This document shows positions 2,428 to 26,852 of a stretch of 28,556 bases of DNA, piece after piece (position 1 is the first letter of the stretch; every line of letters begins with the position of its first letter). Under the pieces are notes generated by a model that worked only from the letters and a program-made list of their open reading frames with translations, did not search any database and was not told the DNA's origin. Location: NCBI GenBank assembly GCA_001724265.1, contig MEDY01000074.1, positions 62,001 through 90,556 of the forward strand, read 5' to 3'. A program made the position numbers and the translations under genes. This stretch comes from Rhizaria sp. SCN 62-66 (taxonomy: Eukaryota).

Positions 2428-3189
2428 ATGACTGTCATTAACGAGAACAAGGTACGCATGTGGGTATTTTACTTAACTTCATGTTCAGTTGTCAACCGAG
2501 CTTGGTCTGTCGCTTCTGATGGTATCATTGCTGTGCCTCATTGGAGACATGCTCGCGCCCTTATAGAATCTACTCTTCGGCTTGTGATATGCTCGATTAT
2601 CAAGTTCAACGGAGACATACGTGAACAACCTGTGTGATTATGTCCTATTTTGTACTATAGCGTGACTTTTACTCCTTGTTCTGTTCGTTGTTACTCCGAT
2701 ATCTTAACAATCACCCATTCATGCCTTGCCTGATGCCTCTATCTTTCCCCAACTTTACTGTCGCGCTCTGTAACCCACTGCCTCGCCCCGCAGATTGCCA
2801 CCGTCTTCCCCGCCGAGACCGCGTCCTTTGACGACATCCCCACCGCGCGCGCCGCGACTGAGGACGTCACCCTGGACCAGGATGGCTCCGACGGCTCCAG
2901 CGAGGGCGAGGACGAGGACGAGGCCGACGAGGTTGACTTCACCGCCATCGACGAGGGTGATGAAGGCGACGAGGGCGACGAGGACGACGAGGAGGCCGAG
3001 CCCGCGCGCCGCACCATGTCCCTCAAGGACCTGATGGGCCCCACGCTCTCGGACGGCAGCGACAGCGACTACGACGCCGCGGCCGACGACGACGAGGACG
3101 TCGAGATTGAGGACGAAGACGAGGAGACTGGCGTAACCGCAGACAACGAGGAGATCGTCCACAACGCCAAGAAGCCCCGCAACGCGTAA
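2428..3189 (+). CDS. Small hyper-acidic disordered protein (139 aa) with C-terminal NLS-like KKPR; exons 2428-2451 and 2794-3189
   Basis: MTVINENK, AAG|GTACGC donor, ...CCCCGCAG acceptor at 2793, then IATVFPAETASFDDIP...EGEDEDEADEVDF...EEIVHNAKKPRNA-TAA. Exon 2 has strong G/C third-position bias. Not in the ORF track. Confidence 0.8.
2452..2793 (+). other. Spliceosomal intron, 342 nt (longest clear intron in the window)
   Basis: GTACGC donor, polypyrimidine tract, CAG acceptor; phase-0 in-frame join. Confidence 0.75.
2497..2620 (+). ncRNA. Candidate intronic box H/ACA snoRNA
   Basis: Hand-folded: hairpin 1 (CGAGC 2497-2501 / GCTCG 2551-2555), H-box-like ATAGAA 2563-2568, hairpin 2 (CTTCG 2575-2579 / CGGAG 2610-2614), ACA 2615-2617. 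The pocket of hairpin 2 is complementary to conserved LSU rRNA UGAACU-UA-AGC. Confidence 0.4.
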
Positions 3190-3600: not shown

Positions 3601-6600
3601 TCACCGTTTATGCGTGCCCGCTCGGCGCCGTCCTCTGCTCACCTCCTAGTCCTCAGCTCTCTCGTCCTCTTCTTCCTCGTTGTTCTCACGAGCTTTGCCC
3701 GTGCGACTCCGCGCCTCCGCACTCCGCCCCGCCGCGACAGGCGAGGCAGTTTGCGCTGCAGCTGCAACGCCGGCACTCCTGCGCCCACTGGCGGCACGGA
3801 CACTGTTCGCACTCGTTGCCCTGCTCATACTACTCGCACTTGTTGCGCTGCTGCATCCGGTGCTCGCGCGACTGACAATACTGCCAGCGCCCAGCGCAGC
3901 GCCCAGTGCGCCCGCGCCCTCATACTCCCACGGGTCCGGGTCAAGCAGGTCTGACAGCGCCCGCAACCGCGACTGAGAGCGCGTCACCCGACCAGCAACC
4001 CCGATTGCACTGCGCTTGCCAGTTGTGGCAGCGACTGTGGTAACCTCAGCGGCGAGCGCGGCGGCTGAGGGGCGCAAGCGGCGCGTTGCGGGCGTTGCCG
4101 GTGCCCCGGTTTCCGCCTCGTTGTCCACCATGGCTGCAGCTGCGCGCGCCCTGACTGCGGCTGTTGCGGCGCTGGTGCTAGCGCGCCGCGCTGCGCTCGC
4201 TTCCGCAGCCGACAAACCTGTCACTGACCCTGAAACTAACTCTGGCGCTGCGGGTGTGCGCCAGAAGGCCGCAGAAGCGGGTGAAAGTGTGCTCAACACA
4301 GCGCGCCAACTGCGCGGCTCTCTAGCCACAGCGGCCTGTGCTGCTGTCTCTTCAGTGTAACCGTCGCCGCTGTCGTCGTTGCCGTCGTTATCGCTCACTG
4401 GCTCCGCGCCAGCGTCATCGGCCCACGCGCGCTGTGAAGATCTGGACACGCGCCGACCGGCGGCCCCGCGCGCAGCTGCACCGCCAGTGACGCTCGGGCG
4501 GACTAGACCGCCACTGGAGCCCATTACGCGAGTCAGATCGATGCGATGTGTCCCGCGGCCAGTCGCAGCTGCCGCGGACGCCGCCTAGTCGCAACTAAGC
4601 CCCGTGCCCCACGCGCCGTTGCTGCTATTGTAGACCTCGCACCCAGCAGCGCTGCCGCCGCCGCTGCCAGTACCGTATTCTAGCGCTGGCAGTGCGCGTT
4701 GCCGCCGGCTGCCCGACAACGCGCTTGCAGCAGCGGCCGCAGCTGCTGCGGCGGTTGCGGCGGCAGTGGCCGCGCTAATTGTCGCACTTGAGCCGCGGTT
4801 CTGCCATCCTGCCGCCGCGCCGCCCGTGGCCGCTGCCGCCGCACTGGCCGCCTCTGCCGCCGACGCCGACGCCGCAACGGCTGCTTCGAGCCTCGCTTCA
4901 AGCCGCGCTAGCTGTCTCCGCAGATCCCCCTGTCCGCGTTCCACTGCGCGTTGCACGGCCTGCAACGGGTCACGGTGCGTTGCCAAGCAGTGGGCGACCG
5001 CAAGCAACGCCGCTGCGCACGCCGCGTAGCGCAGCGCGCCTGTGGCGGCCGCGAAGGCGTCGGGTGTGAGCGGTGCGCCCAGCAGCCAGCCAACCCAGTC
5101 GCTGTGCGAGATTAGCACGCGTTCCAGCGCAAAGGCTGACGCCAGAGCGAGGAAAGCCGTTCCACGCGCGGGTGCGGTTCGCGGCATTGCGGTTAGTAAC
5201 ACAGCCGCAAGCAACGCAACTGGGTAGAAGAGAAATGAGGCCGCTGACGAGAACTCCAACCTTAGCTTTGTGATGCCACCGGTCGCCTGAAAGGGGAAAA
5301 CATCGTATTTGGCACAATATTACACATTTATGAGGAATTTCACGACTTACGTTGAACTCTTTTGGACTGTTTCAAGTTGTCTCAGCTCTAACGCATGTGA
5401 ACGTACCTCGTGCACAAGCCCCATAAGCTTGTCCCTTGTGCCACGGAGCTCGCGTCCAATCGCCTCAGTCTGCAACAGCACGCTGTCATGCATACTCGCG
5501 ATTGATGCAATTCCGGACTGAGCATCCCGCAGCCGCACCTCCATGGCCTCCTGCCGCGCATGTCAAAGTCAGAGAATTTGTGAGCACATAACATGTTTAA
5601 AGTTCATGTAATGCGCACATCTGATTTGATAATTCCGGTCCAACGTACCTGTGATGTGACCATACCCTTCATAGCAGATTCTGACTCTGCGCCTAGCCGC
5701 GCTACTTGCCCCCTCGCGTGCTCAAACGCTGCTTGACTTTCCTTCCTCAGCTCCCCAAGCCCGCCGGTTATACCGCCCAGCTGCTCCGCTGCTGCGCGCT
5801 GCTGTCTCTCAACTTCGCGGCCTTGCTCCTGCAGCGCGCGCCCCGCCGCCAATGCGGCCTCGACGCCCGCAGCGACTTCGCGCTGCCCCGCGGCGAGCGC
5901 TGCAACGCCGGAGCTCGCGCTGGCGACCGCAGCGGCAAGCTCGCCGTGACGCGCGGTCTGTTCAGCAGTCAACGCCGACAGCGATGCCGCCAGCTCGCCG
6001 TGGCCGCGAGCAACGGCGCCCGACACCGAGGCAAGCCCTGACTCAACGCCCTGTAACGCGGCGGCCGCGGCCGCGGAGGCTGACGAGAGAGCTGAGACAG
6101 AGCGCTGTGTCGCTGCGTTGAAGAGATCACGACGTCGGAAATAGCATAGCGAATCGACCTGAGAGAAGAATGTCGTGAATGTGGAGTACGCCTGCGCATT
6201 GGCGCCGATGCGCCTGCGACACTCTGAGAATGACTCAGTTGCTGCGTTACTATCTGTTGACGTTGAGCTTGCAGCGCCGGATGCCATGGTGGGGTCTTGA
6301 GGCGCTGACGCTGCGCAGGGAATCGGAGGCAGACCAACAGACTCAAGCTGACAGTTGGTGAGTGCAAAAGCAATGCGCGCACGGCCTTCGTCACTGAGCA
6401 GTGCACACTGCGACGTGAAGAGTGCCTCGACGTCCGGTCGCGCCCAACAGCCATCTAGCCTCGCCAGCTCCGCAGGCAGAACCACCGCGCGCGACCCCGT
6501 CGCCTCACCTGGGCCTGCACCAAATAGTCCACCGATTAGCCAGCTTGGCGTCGGCTCTTGCGTTGGTTGCGTGGCTAGAGCGCGCAGACCTGCCGTGGAG

Positions 6601-6656
6601 AGGCAGAGCGCGGGGAGTATGCGACGCACGCTGACAGTTCGAGGGCTATCGCTCAT
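3601..6656 (-). CDS. GEX1: GEX1/KAR5/Brambleberry-family nuclear envelope fusion (karyogamy) protein; exons 6656-5649, 5550-5407, 5286-3601. 945 aa if two in-frame TAGs are read; 617 aa ending at 4585 in the standard code
   Basis: Signal-peptide-like N-terminus; Cys-rich domain CW...LFTSQCALLSDEGRARIAFALTNCQLESVGLPPIPC...CRRRI...AYSTFTTFFSQVDSLCYF; long heptad coiled-coil region; three hydrophobic segments (FLFYPVALLAAVLLTAM, AFLALASAFALERVLI, ALRYAACAAALLAVAHCL). This matches the family architecture. The 3' end depends on the meaning of TAG. Confidence 0.85.
5287..5406 (-). other. GEX1 intron 2, 120 nt (preferred model)
   Basis: GAG|GTACGT donor and TTTTCCCCTTTCAG acceptor; phase-0 join (..GLVHE|ATGGITKLRLEF..). 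An alternative intron 5350-5261 also keeps frame. Confidence 0.65.
5551..5648 (-). other. GEX1 intron 1, 98 nt
   Basis: CAG|GTACGT donor, AT-rich body with in-frame stop, ...GGCAG acceptor; phase-0 join (..VTSQ|EAMEVRL..). Confidence 0.8.
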
Positions 6657-7712
6657 AGGCGGTGGCACTGAGGCGGATCACGATCTCAGACAGGAATGAT
6701 AAAAATCGAAAAATGCTGCTACCAATTGAAACTGCTGCGTTATATTGCTATTTTTACTGCTGGCGGACGTGTTCAAGTGCAATCTCCTCCGCCACACCAC
6801 TGACTTGAAGAGATGTTGCTTTCTGGATTGGACGGCATTAATTCTGACCCATAATTACTATTTGCTGCAGATTCACATTGAACTTGTGAACTCTTTGTTA
6901 AAATTCTAGTTATGTATATTTGATTCTCGTGTTGCTACTCTAAAAACTTCATTCTTATTAAGCTTCATTGTGTATTCATGCGAACTATTCAGCTCTTGTG
7001 ACTTGCTGTCTCCTTTCTCTCAAGTCCTCTACGCAAGTGCAATCAAAATAATGTAACAAAATGAAGGTTGACGCCATGCCGAGACTGTAACCTCTGTTGG
7101 TGGCGTTAAGCTATTGTATTTGGCAGCCAAATCAATGCTAGGGCTGCCGATAGCTGCCGCAAAACTTGATGCACGCGCCGCGAGTCGTCCCGATGAATCC
7201 CCGGGATATGCAATTGTATCAAAACCATAATGTATAAATAAAATAGTACTCATATTTTCCAATGCTTGATAGATGTTATATCCTGTAATTGCGTTGAACG
7301 ACGAATATATGGTATGTGTTATGGACTTGAATAGAGGCCTCCAAGGAATGAAATCGGGGCCTTGCCGTATCTGGCTGAGCGCGCGTGGCCGCGGCTTAAC
7401 TTGGCCCACGAAACGAGGCATTGCTGGAGGGCAATTTTCGGGTGTATTTCATCAATGGTCTGGCATGTTATGCTACGGTAAAGATACTTTGTGTTTCTTT
7501 GTATTATATATATTTGCGACACTCCGCTCCAACGTGGTTTGTGACTCCGTCAAGCACTTCTTCATCATGATATCTGAAGGGGATGCACCCTGTCGCGTGC
7601 TGTGCATTTGAACTGTCACTGCCTCGACCACGGATATCCATTTTGCTCATAGTACCCTGCCCCTATATTCTTGCGTGTTTTCCTTTCTCCGCGTGCTGAC
7701 CAGGTCAACCCA

Positions 7713-10700
7713 ATGGCGACCTCTCACCAGCCGAAGCGCAAGCTGGCGCAGTCGGAGCTGGACGACCTCGTGCTGCTCGACACTATCTCCGAGCAGCGCA
7801 TCCTAACCGTGCTCAAGAACCGCTACTCGGGTGACTCGATCTACACGTGCATTGGTCCCGTGCTGATTGCCATCAACCCGTACCGCACGATCCCGAGTCT
7901 GTACACCGAGGCCGTGATCCGCACGTACCGCGGCAAGAAGTACTTCGAGATGCCCCCGCACCCCTACGCCGTGACGGACGAGGCCTACTCGGCGCTGCTA
8001 TCGCACCACGAGAACCAGTGCATCATCATCTCCGGTGAGTCCGGCTCCGGCAAGACGGAGACGTCCAAGATCATCATGCAGTACGTCTCCTCCGTCTCCG
8101 GCCGCGGCACCGAAGTGCAGCGTGTCAAGGATCGCATGCTCTCCTCCAACCCCATCCTCGAAGGCTTCGGTAACGCCAAGACGATCAACAACAACAACTC
8201 GTCCCGCTTCGGCAAGTACATGGTGCTGCACTTTGACTACGGAGGCGACCCCGTCGGTGGACACGTGTCCAACTACCTACTCGAGAAGTCCCGTGTCGTC
8301 GGCCCTGCTGTCAACGAGCGTAACTTCCACGTCTTCTACCAGCTCACCGCTGGCGCCTCGCAGCAGGACCGCACGGCGCTGTACATCGAGAGCCCGTCGT
8401 ACTACCGCTACCTCAACGGCACCGGCTGCCTCACCGTCGACGGCATCAACGACGCTGCCGACTGGCGCGAGATGTCCGAAGCCTTCGCCACCGTCGGTCT
8501 GCCTGATGACGAGCGCCGTGAGATCATGCGCACGCTCTCCCTTGTGCTCTGGCTCGGCAACCTCACCTTTGAGGAGACTGCGCAGGAGGAGTCGTTCCCC
8601 AAGGACCAGGGCGTGGTTGACATCATCGCGCATTTGATGCAGATCTCCTCTGCCGACGTCACTGCGGGCCTCTGCGTGCGCACGATTACCGCCGGCACCG
8701 AGGTCTTCAAGAAGCCCTGCACGCTTAAGGAGGCCGAGTTCAACCGCGACACGATGGCCAAGGCGCTGTACTCGCGTCTGTTCGATTACCTCGTCGCCAA
8801 GATCAACGAGTCGATCCAGCCCCCCGCGTACGAGGGCAACGTCATTGGTGTCCTCGATATCTTCGGCTTCGAGATTTTCCAGCACAACTCGTTCGAGCAG
8901 CTCTGCATCAACTTCGTCAACGAGAAGCTGCAGCAGATCTTCATCGAGCTCACTCTCAAGACGGAGCAGGAGGAGTACAAGGCCGAAGGCATCCCCTGGA
9001 CTGATGTGCCGTACTACAACAACAAGCCCGTGTGCGACCTCATCGAGGGCATGCCCGGCATCCTCTCTCTGCTCGACGATACGTGCTCCACCAACAAGAC
9101 GGACCAGAACTTCGCGTTCGCCATGGGCCAGCTTTTCGCGCAGAACGAGTGCGTGACGTGCGGCGCCACCGACTTCCTCGTGCGTCATTACGCCGGCGAG
9201 GTGCGCTACGACGCCAACGGCTTCGTCGTCAAGAACAAGGATACCCTCTTTGACGACATCATCATGTGCCTGCAGAAGTCCCCTCAGGGCTTCGTTCAGT
9301 ATCAGGGCTGGGCCGCGCTCGACGTCGCCGGTCGCGCCAAGAAGCGCCCCCCCACTGTCTCGCGCGTGTTCCGCGACCAAGTCAAGGCGCTGACGACTGC
9401 GCTCATGTCGTGCGTGCCGCACTACATCCGCTGCATTAAGCCCAACATGACTAAGCAGCCCAACACGTTTGACACACCCATGATCCAGCGCCAGGTTCAA
9501 TATCTCGGTCTGCTCGAGAATGTCCGCGTCCGCCGCGCTGGTTACGCGTACCGCTCCACGTTCGAGCGTTTTGCGCGCCGTTACGGTGTGCTGTGCCCGT
9601 CGCTCGTCGGCGTCCGCACCGGCACGTCCGCCGAAGACGACAAGAAGCACGTGCTCGCGCTCACTGGCCACCTCAAGTGGACCCACGGGAAGGAGTTCGC
9701 GATGGGACACACCAAGATCTTTATCTCCGAGGCTGCGGTGCTGTTCAACCTTGAGGAGCTGCTCGAGCGCAAGATTTCCCAGGCCGTCATGGTGATCCAG
9801 GCCGCATACCGCCACTACCTGCAGCGCCGCAAGTTCATGGAGCTCAAGGCGCTGGGTTACGAAGCGCTTAAGACGCTCAACAAGGAGCGCCGTCGCCACT
9901 CGCTCGGCCCCGCGGCGTCTGCGCCGTACATCGGCGACAACCTGAATCTGCGTCTGTGCCAGCCCGTGCAGGGCCTGCTGCTCATGTCCGGCGGCGCTAA
10001 GGAGAGCGTCGTGTTCGCGGACCGCGCGCACCAGGTCGTCGTTAAGGAGCGCAAGGGTCTGCTGGGCCGTATCTTCAGCGATGAGACCAAGGTCGTGACG
10101 GAGTCCCGCATCCTCATGGTCACCAACAAGGCCGTGTACCTGTTCAAGCTCGTGCACGACCCCGACGCCAACGCGGGCGGCAACGGCGCCGTCGCGAAGC
10201 TCACTTTCCGCGTCACGTTCAACCAGATCACGTCTCTGTCGCTGTCTCCCTACTCGGACGGCTACGTCGTGGTGCACTTTCCCGAGTCCGTCGGCGTGCG
10301 CGACACGCTGCTCAGTGTGCGCCGCAAGACCGAGTTCCTGGCTGCCGTGCTCTACGCGTGCGAGGCGCTCTCGCTGCCGGCGCCGCTGCGCTCGGTCACC
10401 GAGGACCGTATCCTCCTCAACGCCAAGAAGCAGTCGTACTCGGCCATCACGTGGGTCAAGGACGAGGCTGTGTCTCCGGACACCGCGCGTGTCACCAAGC
10501 TCAAGACCGATTTCACCATCGCCGTGCCGACCGGTCTCCCGTTCTCGTCCTCTGTCGAGCCCTACCGCCCGCCCAAGGTCGACTACGTCACCGGCGGCCG
10601 TCTCGCTCTGCGCGCGCTCGCCGACGTGGCCGGCAACGGCGTCGACGAGCTCGCCTTTTCCGCGGGACAGATCCTCTACGCCATCCGTGACGAAGACAAG

Positions 10701-11363
10701 GGCTGGTACCAGTGCGAGATCGGCGACCAGGTCGGCTGGGTCCCCACGCACACCGTCGAACGCATCGGCGGCCCTGCCGCTGGCACCACCGGCAGCGCTG
10801 CCCCCGGCGCGCGCCCCCAGTTGCCTCCCGGCCGCCCCGCCGGCGGCCCTGCTGGCAGCGCTGCTCCCGCGTTTACGGCCGCGCCCGGCGCGCCCCCGCG
10901 CCCCGCCGCGCCCGCTGGCCCGCTCATCACGTCCAACTCGCCCGCCCAGCGCCCGTTCTTCAACTCCCCCGCGCCCGGTAACGCGGGCCCCGGCGGCGCG
11001 AACCCGCACGCGCCGCCCGCGTTTCCGCGCGCGCCCTCGGGTAACGTCGCCGGCGGCGGCGTCGGCGGCGGGCTCGGCCGTCCCGTCATCCCCCCGCCCA
11101 CGCAGCAGCCTCTCAACACGCCCGCGCCCGCGGCCGCGTCGTCCTCGGGCCCCGCGGCCGGCGGCGCGGGCGGACCTGGTGTGCGCGCGCTCACCGGCGG
11201 CTTCCAGGGAATGAACCTTGGCGGCGGCGTCGGTGCCCGGCCCCCGCCGCCCGCGGCGCCCGCGTCGGCCTGGATTGCGCACGTTGACCCCGCCACCGGC
11301 AACACCTACTACGAGAACAAGACGACCGGCGTCACGCAGTGGGACAAGCCCGCCGGTTTCTAA
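7713..11363 (+). CDS. MYO1: Class I myosin (1216 aa): motor, IQ, TH1, SH3, Gly/Pro/Ala-rich region, C-terminal WW
   Basis: P-loop GESGSGKT, switch I NNNSSRFGK, switch II DIFGFE, FEQLCINFVNEKLQQIF, PHYIRCIKPN, YLGLLENVRVRRAGYAYR (class I type), IQAAYRHYLQRR, TH1-like VVFADR...RILMVTNKAVY, SH3 about 10602-10766, WW about 11268-11351. Ends in TAA. An upstream ATG|GTATGT at 7309-7317 spliced to the CAG at 7703 could add four residues. Confidence 0.97.
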   Translation: MATSHQPKRKLAQSELDDLVLLDTISEQRILTVLKNRYSGDSIYTCIGPVLIAINPYRTIPSLYTEAVIRTYRGKKYFEMPPHPYAVTDEAYSALLSHHENQCIIISGESGSGKTETSKIIMQYVSSVSGRGTEVQRVKDRMLSSNPILEGFGNAKTINNNNSSRFGKYMVLHFDYGGDPVGGHVSNYLLEKSRVVGPAVNERNFHVFYQLTAGASQQDRTALYIESPSYYRYLNGTGCLTVDGINDAADWREMSEAFATVGLPDDERREIMRTLSLVLWLGNLTFEETAQEESFPKDQGVVDIIAHLMQISSADVTAGLCVRTITAGTEVFKKPCTLKEAEFNRDTMAKALYSRLFDYLVAKINESIQPPAYEGNVIGVLDIFGFEIFQHNSFEQLCINFVNEKLQQIFIELTLKTEQEEYKAEGIPWTDVPYYNNKPVCDLIEGMPGILSLLDDTCSTNKTDQNFAFAMGQLFAQNECVTCGATDFLVRHYAGEVRYDANGFVVKNKDTLFDDIIMCLQKSPQGFVQYQGWAALDVAGRAKKRPPTVSRVFRDQVKALTTALMSCVPHYIRCIKPNMTKQPNTFDTPMIQRQVQYLGLLENVRVRRAGYAYRSTFERFARRYGVLCPSLVGVRTGTSAEDDKKHVLALTGHLKWTHGKEFAMGHTKIFISEAAVLFNLEELLERKISQAVMVIQAAYRHYLQRRKFMELKALGYEALKTLNKERRRHSLGPAASAPYIGDNLNLRLCQPVQGLLLMSGGAKESVVFADRAHQVVVKERKGLLGRIFSDETKVVTESRILMVTNKAVYLFKLVHDPDANAGGNGAVAKLTFRVTFNQITSLSLSPYSDGYVVVHFPESVGVRDTLLSVRRKTEFLAAVLYACEALSLPAPLRSVTEDRILLNAKKQSYSAITWVKDEAVSPDTARVTKLKTDFTIAVPTGLPFSSSVEPYRPPKVDYVTGGRLALRALADVAGNGVDELAFSAGQILYAIRDEDKGWYQCEIGDQVGWVPTHTVERIGGPAAGTTGSAAPGARPQLPPGRPAGGPAGSAAPAFTAAPGAPPRPAAPAGPLITSNSPAQRPFFNSPAPGNAGPGGANPHAPPAFPRAPSGNVAGGGVGGGLGRPVIPPPTQQPLNTPAPAAASSSGPAAGGAGGPGVRALTGGFQGMNLGGGVGARPPPPAAPASAWIAHVDPATGNTYYENKTTGVTQWDKPAGF

Positions 11364-12378
11364 TCAAGAAGTCGCAGTAATCGCGGTCGCAGGCGCGGTC
11401 AGTCGATAAGATTGGACGACGTTGGATCCGGGGGCAGTGACCCCTGTTTGTACAGCAATGAAACATGTATTATTTTTTTTAGTGTTTAGAATAACAGCTC
11501 GTAGCCATGGCACGAGTTCCAGTCGTAGTAACAGCAGCAGCAGCAGCCAAGGGTCTCGAGGAGGTGTTTTATTCAAAACAGTAGCACTTCTAGCGTCCCA
11601 TGTGATAGTTGTAAGTGTAAGGTAAAACTGAAGTACGTTAGGCTAATTACGTATGACCCAGCGCAAAACAAGACAAAAACAAAATACTGAGCAATCTTTC
11701 TTTCACAACACTTACGTGCTCGTAGTAACCAGCTAAGTTAACAAACGCAATACAAAAGCAAACAATCCCAAGCACAAGTTGGTAATACAATATTGAAGAA
11801 TACAATAACAGCAGCGGTGACGCTACTTTGAGACGTAAACTTGGTAGTGTATGTTTTGATGTTATAAAGAGAGAAGAAGACGCAGCGCGTCGCCGTCAAT
11901 AGTTAGGACAGCGCCGCACCGCGCCCCTACACCCGCCGGAGCATCCCCGAAATAGAGAGGACGACCGGCAGAGCGCAGGAGGGATAGTGAGGAGGTTGGT
12001 GGGCGTCGGTCGATCACATGCGCGCGCAAATCCTCGCAAAGCGGAGGGGACTAGGTGATATCAGTCTCCAGAGAGCGCGCACTCTCACAGACTCACAGAC
12101 AGGGCACGCGGCTTAAGAATCACGCGCACACACAGTGAACTGTAGAGAAAACACGACGTCCGGTTTCGTCTCCCCGCGCAGCACTCCATCGCCGCGATTC
12201 GGCGGCAGCGAGAGAGAGTGCAAGAGAGCGTATTGTGACTGATGACTGTCTGCGGCGTGAGCCAAACCACCCACGGGGGGACTTGACTCACAGCACAGAG
12301 CGAGACAGGACAGAGCAGCGCAGCGCAGACGGCGAGAAGGCAGCCTGGCGACGATGCAGGAACTGGCTGGCAGGCTGC

Positions 12379-12849
12379 TTACGCGTCAACGAGGTCGGGG
12401 GCATCGCCGTTGGCGGCATCCTCGAAGTTGCCTTCGAAGGCAGCCATGTCGGGCATGCCGTCGGGCTTGATGGCGCCAGACGCGGAGAGCTGAGCGAACA
12501 TCTTCTGGAGCTCGGCAATGGAGTCGCCGCCGAGCTGGGTGAGGATGCCGGGGAGGAGCTCCTGGAGGGGCTTCACCTTGTGGTAGCCCTGAACGATCCA
12601 GGCGTTGGCCTCGACGGAGCCGGTGACCTTGGGGCGGGGGAAGTTCATGACGTTGCCATCAGCAAGGAACATGTTGACCTCCTCGATCTGGGGGATGGGG
12701 CGGCCGCCAATCTTCTCGATGACGGTGGTGACCTTCTTGTCCTCAGTGGGGGCAGCGCGGGCGACGGGGGCGACCTTGCGGCGGACACCACCGGTGCGGG
12801 ACGCGGCCTGGGCCTGGAGGGCCTTGAGCTTCTCGGGGTTGATGGGCAT
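12379..12849 (-). CDS. BTF3: Nascent polypeptide-associated complex subunit beta (BTF3/EGD1), 156 aa
   Basis: MPINPEKLKALQ...RTGGVRRK...EDKK...IPQIEEVNMFLADGNVMNFPRPKV...ANAWIVQG...LQELLPGILTQLG. Ends in TAA. The upstream part of the listed ORF is pyrimidine-rich and non-coding-like. Confidence 0.96.
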   Translation of the reverse strand: MPINPEKLKALQAQAASRTGGVRRKVAPVARAAPTEDKKVTTVIEKIGGRPIPQIEEVNMFLADGNVMNFPRPKVTGSVEANAWIVQGYHKVKPLQELLPGILTQLGGDSIAELQKMFAQLSASGAIKPDGMPDMAAFEGNFEDAANGDAPDLVDA

Positions 12850-13364
12850 CGGGACTGTCGTAGAGGAAGAAATGAGTAATGTAATCAAAGCAGAGCGGGT
12901 GTGAGAGAATGTGAAAAAGAACGGAGTATCACGCCTAGACCTCATATCGCCCCCGTACGCGCCCAGGAAGACGACGAAAGAGCGACCGCACGAGCCCAAC
13001 AGACAGAGCGAAGAAAGCACCCTCAACGAAGGCAAAACCAACGTGGCAAGTAGCCGCAATCTAGATCTAGATAGAACATAAACGGAAATATCTGTAAAAT
13101 AAATAAGTCTATCATAGAAGCACGCTAGCAGGCAGGAGCGAGGGATTTCTTCGCGCAGCTGGTCGACTTGGCGCAATCCTGTGGGGCTGGGAAGTTAGGC
13201 CGCCGAACGACCGTGAGTCGACCGCTGATGTATGCTTCAATCGGTGAGTCAAACTGGCCTCTGAGAGAAGTGAAAAGCATCTCCAGTGACATGAAGTTGG
13301 ACGCTTTGAAATAATAAATGCTAGATTTGTATTCTAAAGAACTTGAATTTGAATTATCTACCGT

Positions 13365-13652
13365 TTAATTGCGACGACGAAGCTGCCAGGAGGGGTCAAG
13401 CGCCTTCGGCAAGTCCTCCTCGAAGGGGTTCGCCTTGCCTTCGTCGCTGCGGTCAGCGAGGCTGTCGCTGGGCGCCGTCTCGGTCTAGGTGCCGTTGAAA
13501 AGCTCAATGGAGCCGTCCTTCGCGGGCACGTAGCTCGCGCGGTCCGGCGGGGCGCGCAGCGCGTCGGGCACGGAGCTCAGACGGTCCGCGTTGCGACGGC
13601 GGACGCTCGTCTCGCGCAGCCCAGTGAGCACGAGCTTCGACGGGGGGTTCAT
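13365..13652 (-). CDS. Small unknown protein, 95 codons, with an in-frame TAG at codon 56
   Basis: Polypyrimidine-CAG|ATG, then MNPPSKLVLTGLRETSVRRRNADRLSSVPDALRAPPDRASYVPAKDGSIELFNGT(TAG)TETAPSDSLADRSDEGKANPFEEDLPKALDPSWQLRRRN-TAA. The GC-rich island coincides with ATG to TAA and is flanked by AT-rich DNA. Not in the ORF track. Confidence 0.7.
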
Positions 13653-13869
13653 CTGCGGTAGGAGTCGGAAAGCTATGAAGCTAGGAAAAGGAAATATAAT
13701 AAAAAAGAAGGAACACGCACAAAATGCGGGGGTTTGTGAACGAGTAACTGGAACTTAAGTCAGTAGGGCCGTGATGGTGCAGGTTAACCTCGACTTGACG
13801 ATCATCCCGCCCAACGGAGCTGACAAACCTGACAACTTGAAAAATATTGCACCGCGCCTCGCATTGCTC

Positions 13870-16800
13870 TCAAATGTCGTCGTCAGGTCCCGGCTGAGCA
13901 GTCGACCACTCCTCAGGATCCTGATTATTGTTCGTCGCATTATTGTTGTTGGAGTTGGCGCGTTGGTTGCTAGCGAGGTCGATTGGTGCGATGCCGAAGC
14001 GGCCAGTGGCGGGGCTAGCTGCGCCAACTGAGGCCGCACCGGGCAACGCGCCACCTGGAACGCCTGGGTTGATGTGCACGCCCGCGCCAATCACGCTCAC
14101 ATCAGCCGCAGCTGTGGGGCTGCGGCTGCGTCCAGCGCGGCCCGCGTGGCCAGAGACTCCGCGACGACGCAGTGTCGAGCGCGCGTCTGCAGGAGTGTGT
14201 CGACGATTAGCATCGCTCTCGCTCTCAGGCTCGCTCCTCTCACTGACGCTCTCGCTCTCGCTGTCCTTACCGCCGCGGCTGCGCGTACTGTCCGTGTTCA
14301 CAGGCGCATCGTCAAGCTCGCTCAGCTCCCCGCCAAGCCCGCCCATCGCCGCCGCAGCCGCCGCGACGGAGTCTGCCAGCGCAACGGGACTCGGCGCCAC
14401 AGCCGCGCTACCCGCCGGCCCAGCGCCCGCCGACACCGCGCGACTTGCCGCAGAGCGATTGCTGCCGAGCGACGCGTTGCTGAGGCCCGCGCCGCCGCTA
14501 CTCAGCGCGATGAGACTGTCGCCGCGGCCACTGTCACTGCGGCCGCCGTATCCAGCGGCTGTGAAGTTATCGTCGTCGCTGTCGTCGCCAAGCGCGGATC
14601 CACGGTCCGCGCGCGCTGCCGACGCCGACACCGACGCCGGCCGCGGCGGGCGCGCGCCGCTCACGCCAGCTTTGACTCCAAAACCGGCGCCAGAGCCAGA
14701 GCCGGTGGAGTAGACCGGCGTGGCAGCCGCGGGGCCGAAGCCGCCGCCGCCGCCGTACGCTTGCGCATATGCCAGCGCCTGTGCTTGCTCGTGCCTGAGC
14801 CTACGCCGCGACGGCGTTGACCCAGCAGATCCCGCGGCAGACGCAGCCGATGCAGCGGACGCAGCAGAGGCCGCGGAGGCAGATGACGGCGCGGGCGACG
14901 GCGACCCCCGTGCACTACCATGACCGCCGCCGCTGCCGGTGCCGGTCGCTGAGCCGGCTAGCCCCCCGATTCGGCGCTGCGCACGAGGAGACCGCGAACG
15001 GCCCGGCGAGCCGCGGCCGTAGAACTCCGGCGGCGGCGGGTGGCCTGCGAGTCCGCCGACGCCGTCGCCGTTTCCGTTGCCCGCGTTGCCGAGCACAGAC
15101 GCAATGGCAGCGGCGGTCACACGGTCGCGCAGCTTGGCGACGTCCTCCAGAGTGACCGGCCGGCCCCCGTTGTGGTCGCGCACGTCAGAGTACGCCGCGG
15201 CGAGCACTAAAAGCAGGAACGCCGTGCATGCGGCGGCGAGCAGTGCCGCGATCAGCAGTCCACCGGCGAGGAAAGACGTCAGAAACCAGTGGTGCATGTA
15301 GTACCGCACGCCCTGCAGCCGCGCTGTGAGCGTCAAGTGGCCGGCGACGACAGGCAGCGCGAGACCCAGCGGCGAGCGCACAGTCACGCGCGCCGCCAGC
15401 GCGGGCAGCGCGGCCGAGTCGACGAAGTCTCGCATGAGCAGCAGCGAGTGCGCGCGCAGCGGCGCGACGAGCCCCAGCAGCTGCGGCGCGAACCAGAACA
15501 CCTTGCGCGCAGCACGCAGCCAGACTGCGGCGACGTCGAGCCAGAACGGCAGCCAGAAGAGCTCGGCCGTCCAGTGCGCGGCTCGCAGCGCCAGCGAGAA
15601 GGGGAAGCGGGTGAGCAGCCAGAGCGGCGACAGCGCTGACGCGGCCGTGCCGGGCGCCGCCGCCGTGGCCGCCGCGTCCGCGGGCCCCGCGGCGTGGACG
15701 TGCGCGAGCGGCGAGAAGGGCAGAAACGAGCGCTGCGCGGCCGCGATCGGCACCCAGTGGGGCGCAACCGTGCGCGGGTGGTCACCGGTCTGTTGCTGTT
15801 GTTGCGCAGCAGTATCCGCACTCGCGGCGGCCACGGCGGCGGGCTCTCCGGAGAGGATGGCTTCGAGCAGCGTCTGCCGCCTGCGCTGCGCGGCCGCGGC
15901 GGCGGCGACGACACCGGCGGTATAGAGCACCTCGTCGACGCCGTAGAGCTCGACGGTGACCACGGCGGCGGTGTGGGCGCCCATCGCAGCGGCCTGCGCG
16001 GCGGACGAGTGCGCCACGGTCGCGGGCGCGGTGAGACCCGTGGTGGAGATGTCGAAACCGAGCACGCGCGCGGGCAGCGGCGTGGGCGTCTCCGGCAGCG
16101 TCAAGTCAAGCGTGATGTCGTACCCCTGTTCGGGATCGAGCAAGTGCGATGCCGTCGCGAGCGCGGGCCGCGACAGATGTGCAGTCCAGGACGCAGACGC
16201 GGCCGCGGCCGCCACCGCTGAGGATGCGGCCGTCAGACCTTGCACGCTCTGATTCTCATAGCTCGCGGCGTCACCGTCGCCAGGCGAGTGCTTGTGCGAG
16301 TGTGAGAGTAAATATAGCACTGCGGGCGGCAGACAGCGCACGCGGCCGTCCGCGCCGGGTCGGGCCACCGCCAGTGCGGCGCTTACCGCGGCTGCGACAG
16401 CATCAGCGTCGCCGTCACCAGAGCCAGCCCCGGCCCCAGCGCCAGCGCCGGAGCCCGCGGAGATGGCGTCGCCGCCCTCGGCAGCGGCGGCGGCTGCGGC
16501 GGCGGCCGCGGCGGACGTGTCAGCCGCGTAAAGCGATGACGCGCCCGGCGTAGCCAGATGCAGCGCGCCCGTGGCGGCGGCCGTCGACAGCGCGGCCGCC
16601 ACGGTGAACGGCGACAGCGGCGGCGGGGACACCGGCGCGGCGCCCGGTGCGAGGAGAGCGACGAGCTCGGCCACGGTCAACGCGCTCTCGCGGGCTGCGA
16701 CAGGGCCGCCGGTGCACGCGGGCAGCGCGGACAGAGCCGCAGAGCGCACGGCCGCCAGAAGCCGCCGCTGCGCCTGTGCACGCGCGGCCGCAGCGGGGTA

Positions 16801-17809
16801 GGCGGCTGCAGCGACCGCCAAGTGCGGCGCCTCGGTCATCGTGCGCTCGACACTGTGCAAAGAAGAGAAATATAAAGCATGAACAAGATGTTGTGAAAAA
16901 CAAATTAGTATCATTTTAAATGAAATAAACAACTTTATAGTCAGTAATATGTGTGACACATCAATTTGCCGCTTGATCGACGTACCTGTATGACCAGCTC
17001 TCGGTAAGCGCGCCGGCCGCGCCAGCGACACCGGCTCCGCCGAAGCCCGGCTGATCTGTCAGCGCGAGGGACTCGTAACCAACGCCGGAAACCGTGCCTG
17101 CGGGCGCTGCGATCGCAGGATCGCCGCCGCGTGCGAAGATGGTTGACAGCAAACCCGGCGCGGCGCGCGATGCTGCGGCGGCGTTGGCGAGCAGCAGCGT
17201 CTGTTGAGCCAGCGCCAGCGCGGCAGCGCGCGTGGGCCGTCCAGTCGCGGCGCGCGCGGCGGCGGCGGCTGCGGCTGACGCGGGTGGCGCGGGAGGAGGC
17301 GAGAAGGGCAGGACAGCGGCGCCGCGCGCGTAGCTTTCAGGCGTCAACGCTGGAGTCGCAGGCGCGCGCGGGTTCAGCGCCGACATTAGCGGTGCCCACG
17401 CGACGGGGCCGGTAAAACTCGGCGCTGCAAGTGGCGCAATCGGCGGCGCGTAATCGAATACGAGTGGGATTGTGTGCGCAGTGACGGGGATGACGAAAGC
17501 GTAGATGCAGAGGTAGAGCACAAAGCCGGCGGCCAGCATCGCAAACGCGAAGAAGCAAAAGGCCAAGAACGCCACCAGCGTCACTAGCGCGTACGTCAGC
17601 ACCACCTTGAGTGTCGCGCCGTAGCCCTCAAACCGCGCCGTGAGGTCGTTGATAGGCACCATGGCCTGTGCCTTGAAGTAACCCGGCCACGCAGAGAGTG
17701 GGGTTCCGCTCAGTGTTGACACGACGCGCGATGTCGACGCACCAAGCGCGCGCGCAGCAGCGGCTGCCCGCGTGCTCCAGCGGGGCCGCCGCTCAGAAGG
17801 CGCACGCAT
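13870..17809 (-). CDS. BSCL2: Seipin (BSCL2/Sei1 family lipid-droplet biogenesis protein), about 1268 aa with Ala-rich insertions; exons 17809-16986 and 16852-13870
   Basis: TM1 followed by YAFVIPVTAHTIPLVFDY; LLDPEQGYDITLDLTLPETP; LWLLTRFPF; GHLTLTARLQGVRYYMHHWFLTSFLAGG followed by TM2. These seipin motifs occur in the expected order. Ends in TGA. Start codon uncertain. Confidence 0.88.
16853..16985 (-). other. Seipin intron, 133 nt
   Basis: CAG|GTACGT donor, AT-rich body, TTCTTTGCACAG acceptor; phase-2 join fuses the two listed ORFs (..SWSYS-VERTM..). Confidence 0.85.
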
Positions 17810-18218
17810 CAGAATCAGTCCGTCAGCCAATAGAAAAGAACGTTTGTGCTGTGCTGGGTGGGCTAGGAGCCTACGTCGATGTGTTGAGATGAAGCGGTGA
17901 GTGGTACGATATCAACGACGCGAAATCATGACAAAACGTGAGTTTGAGCACAAATTAACTTAATATCATGTAAATCTTAATGATTAAATATCATATCCCT
18001 CAGAAACAGGCAATTATTACGATCGTATGTATCAATCATCTCAATAAAAAATCGTCTATCGGCTGCCACATCAAAGCGAGTGGTGCCACTGCATTTCCCA
18101 ACGGGTGACTCGAAAAGCAAGCAAAATAGCGGGGTGTGCACTAAATGTAGAGTGTATTGCGGCCGTAAGACCATAATTAGTATTTTTAAAATCAGTTATT
18201 CACTGAGATGACATTAAT

Positions 18219-24410: not shown

Positions 24411-25016
24411 TGTGACAGGTGCGGAGACAGAACGGGGCGCGCGGCAGTTAAAAGGCGTGGACTCACTCGGTGTTGGAGACTGTGACGAGTTCGCGCAGCG
24501 CATAGTAGAGAGATAAAGGTCAGTATTCCGTCAATGGGTGCAGCATAAGGGTGTCTGGTAGGATAGGTGCGCAATTAAATTATATGTCATTTGCATCCAT
24601 AAAATAGGCAATATACCTCTCGCTATTCGTCAACTTTGGCTCCCGCCAGTGAAGCTGATTGGTGCCAAGTGACTGTGGATCGCCAGTCGCTCGACGAAGT
24701 CAGGCCGCAAGCTAATTTGACTGTCTATCGATAAATTCGTGCTACCAACGTCCGACGATAAAGCTATAAACTGCATCTCCGTATAGTCATATGGTGATTG
24801 TATAAGATATTTTATATTTGTTTCTTAGGACCTCGTTAACCTGTCACAAATCCTTCTTAAGATTCGATAACTTTGCCACGTCCGAATTTCTCATCGCTTG
24901 CTTTTAACGCCTATCCCTGCTCGCCCATCTGTCTCTTTCCGTGCACAGACCCTTTTTTCAGCCCGCCCGCCCTCGGTTGCGTGCCTGCTCAAGCGTCGCC
25001 TCCCCTCCAGCCCCTG

Positions 25017-26852
25017 ATGCCCAAGCCTTCCAAGGGGGCGCCCGCCACCCCGGCCAAGCCCTCCTCCGCCTCTGCCTCTGCCACTGCCTCTGCCTCCACG
25101 GCCGGCGGTGCTGCAGCTGCTCCTGCTGACTTGACCGCTGCAGCGTCCACGCCGTCGTCTAAGGGGCGCATTTCAACCCTTCTGAACTCTGTGCGCAGCT
25201 CCCAGCGGTACATCTCGATGTCGAACGTGTTCCAGAACGCGCGCAACGGCATGCGCTTCAACGAGCACACGCGCCGCGTCAAGTCCATCGCGCGCCGCGC
25301 CGCCATCATCGCCTGGATTGAGCCCACGGCGCTGCTCTTTGCCGCCGCGCTTGCCGTCCCGCTCTACATGAAGGGCTACATCACGTCGCTGCCCCTCGTG
25401 CTGCTGCTCGTGTACGTGCTCGCACAGGTGTTCAACGTCGTCTTCTCTGTCGGCGTCATGCTGTCTCACATCGTCCGCAACAAGGACGCCGCCGCCGCTG
25501 GCCCCTCGTACGCTAAGAACGCCTCTGGCGGCAAGCTCCACCTCAGCGCTATCCACCCCCATGACTCTGCCTCTAACACGGGCGCTGCCGCTGGCGCTGC
25601 TGCTGCTCATGATGATGACGAGGAGTCTCGCCGCAAGAGCTGCCGCCGCATGTGCGTCTCGATCCGGCCCCCGCAGGTTGTCCGCTGGGACATCGTCGGC
25701 GTGACCCTGTCCAACTGGTTCGGCAAGGTCAACTCGGTGCCGCTGCCCGTGTTCATGCGCTCCCCGCTGTACCGTTTCTACGCCTGGTTCACCGGCGCGA
25801 ACCTCGACGAAGTCAAGCTGCCGCTGCGCGCGTTCCCGTCCCTGCAGGCCTTCTTCTCCCGCGAGCTCAAGCCCGGAGTCCGCCCCATTGCCGATACCGC
25901 GCTCGTCTCCCCCGTCGACGCGCGCATCGTCGTGCTGGGTCCCGTCGAGGGCGAGCGCGTCGAGCAGGTCAAGGGCGTGACGTACCCGCTCCCGTCGTTC
26001 CTCGGCGAGGACCTGTGGACCGCCAACGCGGACAAGCGTCTCTACCACTGCGTGCTGTACCTCGCGCCCGGTGACTACCACCGCATCCACTCAGGTGCCG
26101 ACTGCTCCGTCACTCTGCTGCGCCACTTCCCCGGTACTCTGTTTCCAATCTCGCCCGTCGTCGCGCGCCTCGTGCCGAACCTCTTCGCGCTCAACGAACG
26201 CGTGGTACTCGCGGGCGCGTGGAGCCACGGGTTCTACTCCGCCACGGCCGTCGGCGCCTACCACGTCGGGTCGATGGCGTTCAACTTCGATAAGAATGTG
26301 CGCACGAATCGTCTCCGCCGCGACTTCCGCAACCCCAATCTCTCGTTGATGTCCAACAAGGGCCTCGGCGCATACGCCTACGACTTCGAGTACCCCGAGG
26401 GCACGCTCGCCTTCGCCAAGGGCGACGAGGTCGGCACGTTTAAGCTCGGCTCGACCATCGTGCTGGTGTTCGAAGTCCCCGCCGACGCCGAGTTCGAGTT
26501 CCTCGTTTCCCCCGGCCAGAAGGTCCAGATGGGCCAGCCCCTCGGCCGCCTCACCCCGGGCCCGTCTTCCGCCAACGCCACCCCTGCCGCCCCCGTCGCC
26601 GCCGCCGCTGCTGCTGCTGCTGCGGCCCCCGCGAAGCTCTCTGCTGCCCCGGCCGCTGTCGCCAGCGCCGTCGAGGCCGAGGTCGCCGCCGAGGCTGCCG
26701 CTGAGGTCGCCGCCGAGGCCACCTCTGAGGCTGAGGCTGAGGCTGCGGAGGCAGAGGTCGAGGCCGACGCCGCAGCCGCTGCTGAGGCTGCTGAGGTCGG
26801 CTCCGAGTCCGAGGACGACGCCACCGTGCGTTCCCGCAGTGCGCGCGCTTAA
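25017..26852 (+). CDS. PISD: Phosphatidylserine decarboxylase proenzyme, type I (PISD/Psd1-like), 611 aa
   Basis: FFSRELKPGVRPI, VSPVDA, EQVKGVTY, YLAPGDYHRIHS, HFPGTLF, LFALNERVVL, and autocleavage motif FKLGSTIVLVFE (LGST at 26445-26456). Ends in TAA. Confidence 0.96.
   Translation: MPKPSKGAPATPAKPSSASASATASASTAGGAAAAPADLTAAASTPSSKGRISTLLNSVRSSQRYISMSNVFQNARNGMRFNEHTRRVKSIARRAAIIAWIEPTALLFAAALAVPLYMKGYITSLPLVLLLVYVLAQVFNVVFSVGVMLSHIVRNKDAAAAGPSYAKNASGGKLHLSAIHPHDSASNTGAAAGAAAAHDDDEESRRKSCRRMCVSIRPPQVVRWDIVGVTLSNWFGKVNSVPLPVFMRSPLYRFYAWFTGANLDEVKLPLRAFPSLQAFFSRELKPGVRPIADTALVSPVDARIVVLGPVEGERVEQVKGVTYPLPSFLGEDLWTANADKRLYHCVLYLAPGDYHRIHSGADCSVTLLRHFPGTLFPISPVVARLVPNLFALNERVVLAGAWSHGFYSATAVGAYHVGSMAFNFDKNVRTNRLRRDFRNPNLSLMSNKGLGAYAYDFEYPEGTLAFAKGDEVGTFKLGSTIVLVFEVPADAEFEFLVSPGQKVQMGQPLGRLTPGPSSANATPAAPVAAAAAAAAAAPAKLSAAPAAVASAVEAEVAAEAAAEVAAEATSEAEAEAAEAEVEADAAAAAEAAEVGSESEDDATVRSRSARA

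Follow-up and report, generated by a model that had tools for sequence, protein, structure and literature searches.

In-frame TAG triplets in two orphan genes of a GC-rich eukaryotic contig: coding sequence runs across two of them, but a change of the genetic code is not established

This report concerns a stretch of 28,556 nucleotides (hereafter the window) from contig MEDY01000074.1 of Rhizaria sp. SCN 62-66 (assembly GCA_001724265.1, positions 62,001 to 90,556 of the forward strand), in which the triplet TAG lies in frame at three places within two genes, here called gene A and gene B. We found that two of the three TAGs sit within continuous, frame-specific coding sequence, and this observation is real and statistically solid for the two sites. 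A reading made from the sequence alone had taken the TAGs as signs of a probable reassignment of UAG only. The word probable is too strong, since no TAG stands at a conserved position, one of the three looks like a terminator, and the usage of TAG is about 10 times too low. A new code is not established, and both the terminator-like triplet and the extremely low number of TAGs partly contradict it. The explanation that we place first, with about even confidence, is that the standard code applies, that all three TAGs are stops, and that two of them are recent truncating mutations. We regard the result as a lead of moderate interest, short of a discovery.

The window is part of a gene-dense eukaryotic contig. 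Its coding sequence has a GC content of about 70%, and its intergenic sequence one close to 50%. Open frames are common at 70% GC; the strand opposite the myosin gene of the window, for example, is open for 1028 codons. Because an open frame alone means little at such a composition, we scored codon usage instead. The model was trained on the confident genes of the window, and the scores compare the frame in question with the two other frames. Read with this model, the window holds about 11 genes. The three in-frame TAGs are located at 13487-13485 in gene B and at 4587-4585 (TAG1) and 3648-3646 (TAG2) in gene A, all on the minus strand, and 39, 312, and 14 codons, respectively, follow them before the next stop triplet. 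The sequence-only reading had given these coordinates and counts exactly. Its main prediction, that coding continues in frame beyond a TAG, held for the gene B TAG and for TAG1, where the codon scores were strong, and failed for TAG2.

We then made an unbiased scan of both strands, in which all stop triplets preceded by 50 or more open codons and followed by 30 or more were ranked by the coding score on either side. The gene B TAG was ranked first. TAG1 was ranked eighth, and the six sites between these two were all antisense to confident genes.

Gene B is located at 13652-13365 on the minus strand. Its upstream part (13488-13652) consists of 55 codons beginning with the ATG at 13652-13650 and scored 0.39, against -0.91 and -0.49 in the other frames, with a GC content at third codon positions (GC3) of 0.91. 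The value of 0.39 is near the mean of confident coding windows, which is 0.41. Downstream of the TAG (13485-13487), the remaining part (13365-13484) consists of 39 codons and a TAA (13367-13365), possesses no ATG, and scored 0.35, against -0.92 and -1.02. None of 8338 intergenic windows of 39 codons (1693 of them open) reached 0.35, the maximum being 0.13, and 35% of true coding windows scored below the post-TAG part of gene B. The GC content falls to 0.27 immediately after the TAA. No Pfam family was found in gene B. A long pyrimidine tract that ends in TAG lies at 13681-13760 on the minus strand, just upstream of the ATG of gene B and 218 nt after the stop of the seipin gene. This tract could be the acceptor of an intron in the 5' untranslated region (UTR) or a promoter element.

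Gene A extends on the minus strand from 5424 to TAG2 at 3648-3646, or to a TGA at 3603-3601 if TAG2 is read through. From the sequence, we predict a first exon at 5407-5424, composed of the ATG (5424-5422) and five further codons, which ends before a GTACGT donor and joins the second exon in frame. The intron (5287-5406) is 120 nt long and has a GC content of 0.39, a pyrimidine tract, and a CAG acceptor. The coding sequence upstream of TAG1 (4588-5286, 233 codons) scored 0.01, against -0.70 and -0.53 in the other frames. The 19 codons immediately downstream of TAG1 (4585-4587) scored 0.17, against -0.59 and -0.44, and the whole downstream half (3649-4584, 312 open codons), which is in the same frame, scored -0.02, against -0.71 and -0.73. 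That is, the two halves show matching frame profiles across TAG1. The other two frames of gene A contain 14 and 16 stops.

The behavior of the sequence at TAG2 (3646-3648) was different. In the sliding scores the coding signal stops at this triplet, and the 14 codons and TGA that follow (3601-3645) are not coding-like. Their score of -1.18 was lower than that of all 531 windows of 14 codons within gene A (minimum -1.08), and the advantage of the frame was lost. Most simply, gene A ends at TAG2; because the coding signal ends there, UAG seems to act as a terminator for at least this gene. The GC content is still 0.77 in the first 30 nt after TAG2 and the tail is only 14 codons long, so this reading is not fully settled.

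Gene A was also used as the query of homology searches. When read through, it gave no homologue in a word-indexed search, and in a full HMMER search of 1.84 billion representatives its sole match was its own product, P0002. This product has 200 amino acids, runs from an ATG at 5187 to TAG1, and is 100% identical to residues 34-233 of the query. It occurs on 6 contigs, the longest being 90,576 nt. All gene callers behind these contigs placed the end of the product at TAG1, and the 1.84 billion representatives include no longer form. P0002 itself had no usable match in the Atlas, and no Pfam family was found in gene A.

Next we consider the gene ends and the usage of TAG. With TAGs read through, the window contains ten complete 3' ends, not nine as had been counted earlier. 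Six of them are TAA, as claimed (orf2734, myosin, NAC-beta, gene B, phosphatidylserine decarboxylase [PSD], and gene 11), and four, not three, are TGA (gene A, orf5604, seipin, and the IPI1-like gene). The claim that no gene ends in TAG stands for the other genes, of which all eight ends are TAA or TGA, but is undercut by gene A, of which TAG2 looks like the terminator. It was also correct that the myosin, IPI1-like, seipin, and PSD genes lack in-frame TAG, and the same applies to NAC-beta, orf5604, and orf2734. Altogether, no in-frame TAG was found in the nine other genes of the window, all conserved ones included (seven were checked by frame, and genes 1 and 11 are uninterrupted open reading frames [ORFs]). 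Among the conserved proteins of the window (myosin, PSD, seipin, IPI1-like, and NAC-beta), no in-frame TAG was found at a conserved position.

If TAG is read as sense, it is used about 2-3 times in 7228 codons. For comparison, TTG occurs 39 times against 252 for CTG, and CAA 36 times against 188 for CAG. From such codon pairs, tens of TAGs are therefore expected in 7228 codons for an established sense codon, and the actual usage is about 10 times lower. We also calculated the share of TAG among the possible nonsense changes, which was 47-50% in gene A and 77-82% in gene B. The fact that only TAG interrupts these genes is weak evidence, because TAG is the commonest random nonsense outcome in such GC3-rich genes. 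Neither tRNA genes nor Rfam matches were found in the window, and its genes do not include eRF1.

In the myosin, PSD, NAC-beta, and orf2734 genes, none of the three frames contains the trinucleotide TAG, while TGA and TAA are present out of frame. This absence probably follows from the GC3-rich codon usage, and it implies a general scarcity of TAG in genes with strong codon bias.

The window contains two recognizable introns, namely that of gene A (5406-5287) and one in the seipin gene (16985-16853, 133 nt, GC 0.30). Both begin with a GTACGT donor, end with a pyrimidine tract followed by CAG, and join their flanking frames correctly. The seipin intron also contains a TACTAAT-like stretch, and the intron signals appear yeast-like. 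No donor of the GTACGT type was found upstream of the TAGs, in 300 nt searched for gene A and 165 nt searched for gene B, and no window of 60 nt near TAG1 or the gene B TAG had a GC content below 0.60. We therefore rejected an intron across TAG1 or the gene B TAG, since neither a donor nor a composition like that of the known introns is present. A separate start codon was also unsupported, the post-TAG part of gene B having no ATG and the spacer of gene A being coding-like in frame.

According to the explanation that we prefer, TAG2 would be the original terminator of gene A, and TAG1 and the gene B TAG would be recent single-base nonsense changes. These changes would truncate gene A to 239 of about 552 codons and gene B to 55 of 95 codons. 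The truncated proteins would be fast-evolving, lineage-specific, and largely disordered, and their truncation would be tolerated. The changes would also be so recent that the downstream sequence, although no longer translated, still keeps an open frame and a biased codon usage. We infer both that the ribosome stops at these TAGs and that the truncations are tolerated. That both changes are TAG is unsurprising, because this triplet is the commonest nonsense outcome in GC3-rich genes. Moreover, genes A and B are orphans (without a Pfam family in either, and by the homologue search made on gene A), and orphans are the class most tolerant of truncation. The loss of the coding signal at TAG2, the scarcity of TAG in the window, the end of P0002 at TAG1 in the gene calls of all 6 contigs, and the purine that follows each TAG also count in favor of this explanation.

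Several of our results weigh against the standard code with truncating mutations. In the unbiased scan, no TAA or TGA was found to interrupt any real coding frame. The codon bias of gene B suggests that it is a functional gene, for which the loss of 41% of its length should matter. The TAG1 allele is present on all 6 contigs that carry P0002, and hence is not a rare allele. Finally, it is improbable that two of about 11 genes within 28 kb would carry truncating mutations, the chance being by a rough estimate a few in 10,000. This estimate assumes that about 1% of the genes of a genome have such alleles, a value taken from population surveys of yeast. The probabilities that we attach to this and the following explanations rest on our own rough priors and likelihoods, and a small remainder is assigned to none of them.

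The stops might be bypassed or removed without any change of the code. Programmed, gene-specific readthrough under the standard code would produce short and C-terminally extended isoforms from genes A and B, and an open, in-frame, coding-like sequence after a stop is the classic signature of conserved readthrough. The base after each of the three TAGs, however, is a purine (A or G), which forms a strong termination context, and none of the known leaky contexts (UAG-CARYYA and UGA-CUAG) was present at the TAGs. RNA folds of the 106 nt from each TAG were no better than those of shuffled sequences (z-scores 0.15, 0.71, and -0.39). Readthrough extensions are usually far shorter than 312 codons, which counts against readthrough in gene A. 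We consider this explanation improbable. Still smaller is the chance that the mRNA no longer contains the TAG, because of an unusual GC-rich in-frame intron or of RNA editing (for example, of UAG to UGG or CAG), or that the downstream half of gene A forms a gene of its own. There are GT..AG pairs of a length divisible by three across both TAGs (39 in gene A and 33 in gene B), and an ATG occurs 20 codons beyond TAG1. Nevertheless, these pairs enclose GC-rich, coding-like sequence that does not resemble the known introns in donor or composition, and the would-be intron of gene B is strongly coding-like. A separate gene is disfavored by the 59-nt spacer after TAG1, which shows a coding signal in frame, and by the distances between other head-to-tail genes, which are about 180-500 nt, with AT-richer bins following most stops; a separate start would also need an ATG, which the post-TAG part of gene B does not offer. 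To our knowledge, RNA editing of this kind has no precedent in this group. An artefact, through errors of sequencing or assembly or through a heterozygous nonsense allele of which the assembler picked one haplotype, could be suspected because the window comes from a metagenome assembly. For TAG1 only, the identical product end on 6 contigs and the lack of a longer form among the representatives argue against it, and we regard such an artefact as very improbable.

A more serious alternative, though in our judgment an unlikely one, is that UAG is translated through an incipient, inefficient, or context-dependent (ambiguous) reassignment, with UAA and UGA staying stops. In genes A and B, UAG would then specify an amino acid, and it might still act as a stop near the 3' ends of mRNAs. 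Such a change would require either a tRNA that has a CUA anticodon or an eRF1 that responds less strongly to UAG. In favor of this explanation, the frame-specific coding signal runs straight across TAG1 and the gene B TAG (0.39 before and 0.35 after in gene B), the latter is at the top of the scan, and TAG is the sole stop that interrupts coding frames. The post-TAG part of gene B cannot start independently, no intron-like sequence lies across either site, and none of the eight other gene ends uses TAG. The myosin of the window falls in a clade with Plasmodiophora, and a rhizarian with UAG for Leu is documented (PMC5304391). If the change were recent, a former TAG terminator would have a UTR-like tail, as is seen after TAG2. 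On the other side stand the absence of TAG from the nine other genes, all conserved ones included, a usage at least 10 times below that of comparable codons, a tail after TAG2 that is not coding-like, and the lack of a tRNA or Rfam match in the window. The usage is also far below the 384 UAGs in 71 genes of that rhizarian, and the prior is low, only a few lineages being known in which UAG alone is reassigned. Because a settled sense UAG would be common, only the incipient, inefficient, or context-dependent form fits, and this is a rarer state. That the organism is a free-living, high-GC, rhizarian-like wastewater protist at an early or ambiguous stage of UAG capture, with UAA and UGA as stops, is a tentative proposal, to which we give distinctly less credence than to truncating mutations under the standard code.

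We compared the window with known codes. In the rhizarian exLh (Sainouroidea), UAG encodes Leu and UAA and UGA are stops (Panek et al. 2017, PMC5304391), and many of its 384 in-frame UAGs are at conserved positions. The likeness to exLh is that UAG alone would be sense and UAA the dominant terminator, and that the window myosin groups with a rhizarian one. The difference is that the window has 2-3 TAGs in 7228 codons, none of them at a conserved position. Panek et al. was the only literature that we found on UAG in Sainouroidea, and the accessible part of an article on wastewater eukaryote genomes (PMC12021597) contains nothing about genetic codes. In Iotanema spirale (Fornicata), UAG encodes Gln, which is backed by alignments of conserved proteins and a change in eRF1 (PMC5304391). 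There too UAG alone is reassigned while UAA is still a stop, but the lineage is unrelated. Among ciliates, the codes of Oligohymenophorea sp. PL0344 and of the phyllopharyngeans provide a precedent for the uncoupling of UAG from UAA. The nuclear genomes of ciliates are typically AT-rich. In contrast, the coding sequence of the window is about 70% GC, and the myosin tree described below held no ciliate rows.

Ambiguous codes, such as those of Condylostoma, Parduczia, the karyorelicts, and Blastocrithidia (for UAA), would permit a sense TAG inside genes A and B together with a stop at TAG2. In organisms with such codes, in-frame stops are frequent and genome-wide, whereas those in the window are very rare. 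Ordinary nonsense alleles resemble what we observed in that a single in-frame stop lies in an otherwise intact, non-conserved ORF and in that TAG is the triplet expected in GC3-rich genes. They differ in that two such genes among about 11 neighbors is unusually dense.

Reassignment of nuclear UAG only is known from very few lineages, and the described cases are all established codes with frequent in-frame UAGs. If the tentative proposal of translated UAG were true, an organism with a handful of translated UAGs would show the transitional stage that is disputed between the codon-capture and the ambiguous-intermediate models. Such an organism would represent a natural intermediate on the way to reassignment, within the supergroup to which exLh belongs. 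Public data from wastewater and bioreactors, poly(A) RNA included, contain the organism repeatedly. Should the TAGs be plain nonsense alleles, the finding would be an ordinary one and would serve mainly as a caution that TAG is the premature stop to be expected in GC3-rich genomes, where it can be mistaken for a change of the code.

The affinity of the organism was examined with the class I myosin (7713-11363, plus strand), which has TH1 and SH3 domains and a C-terminal WW domain and ends in TAA. Among the matches listed, the best named one with the same TH1-SH3-WW architecture was that of Plasmodiophora brassicae (48% identity), the best of all was 72% identical, and the myosin of the window itself was absent. 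This architecture is also common to many unnamed metagenome and MMETSP sequences. In a quick maximum-likelihood tree of 48 rows chosen by hand from 120 listed, the window myosin fell in a clade of 27 rows with 100% SH-aLRT support, of which Plasmodiophora (Rhizaria) was the only named member and outside which the amoebozoan, apusozoan, heterolobosean, and opisthokont rows fell. We take this tree as a lead that may point towards Rhizaria, not as a placement. Neither the metagenome scan nor the genome-contig scan gave syntenic relatives of the locus; the metagenome scan yielded two short myosin loci without flanks. A locus of 36% GC (L001, 1-3629) encodes a myosin that is 54% identical and has no introns, no in-frame TAG or other stops, and a TAA end. 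The relatives in the myosin clade cover a very wide range of GC content.

The runs that hold the window are bioreactor, wastewater, and activated-sludge metagenomes, with poly(A) metatranscriptomes included. Runs carrying the stretch wholly or partly came from 7 studies, and 4 runs (3 studies) contained it at 0.86 or more of the sampled words.

The remaining genes of the window are as follows. Gene 1 runs off the left end on the minus strand as an uninterrupted ORF. A plus-strand frame at 3-1673, which would end in TGA and be followed by GC-rich sequence, was rejected as a gene, since in that region it is the minus strand that carries the coding frame. The gene orf2734 (2734-3189) is on the plus strand and ends in TAA, and orf5604 is on the minus strand and ends in TGA. 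NAC-beta (12379-12858, minus strand) ends in TAA, and past this TAA the GC content stays at 0.53-0.73 for 180 nt (12199-12378, minus strand), unlike after most other stops. This stretch has a poor in-frame codon score (-0.31). A drop of GC after a stop was discarded as an unreliable criterion, since a GC content of 0.6-0.7 also follows the NAC-beta TAA. PSD (24861-26852) is on the plus strand and ends in TAA, and gene 11 is an uninterrupted ORF on the minus strand that runs off the right end and ends in TAA.

The seipin gene (13870-17911, minus strand) ends in TGA. Its seipin domain, a Pfam match at residues 512-601 of the ORF, lies inside a protein of more than 1300 amino acids that is rich in low-complexity sequence of Ala, Ser, and Gly. 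The neighboring IPI1-like gene is also on the minus strand and ends in TGA; it encodes a protein of 2103 amino acids in which Ipi1_N is the sole domain match. Very long, disordered extensions are thus present in proteins of the organism.

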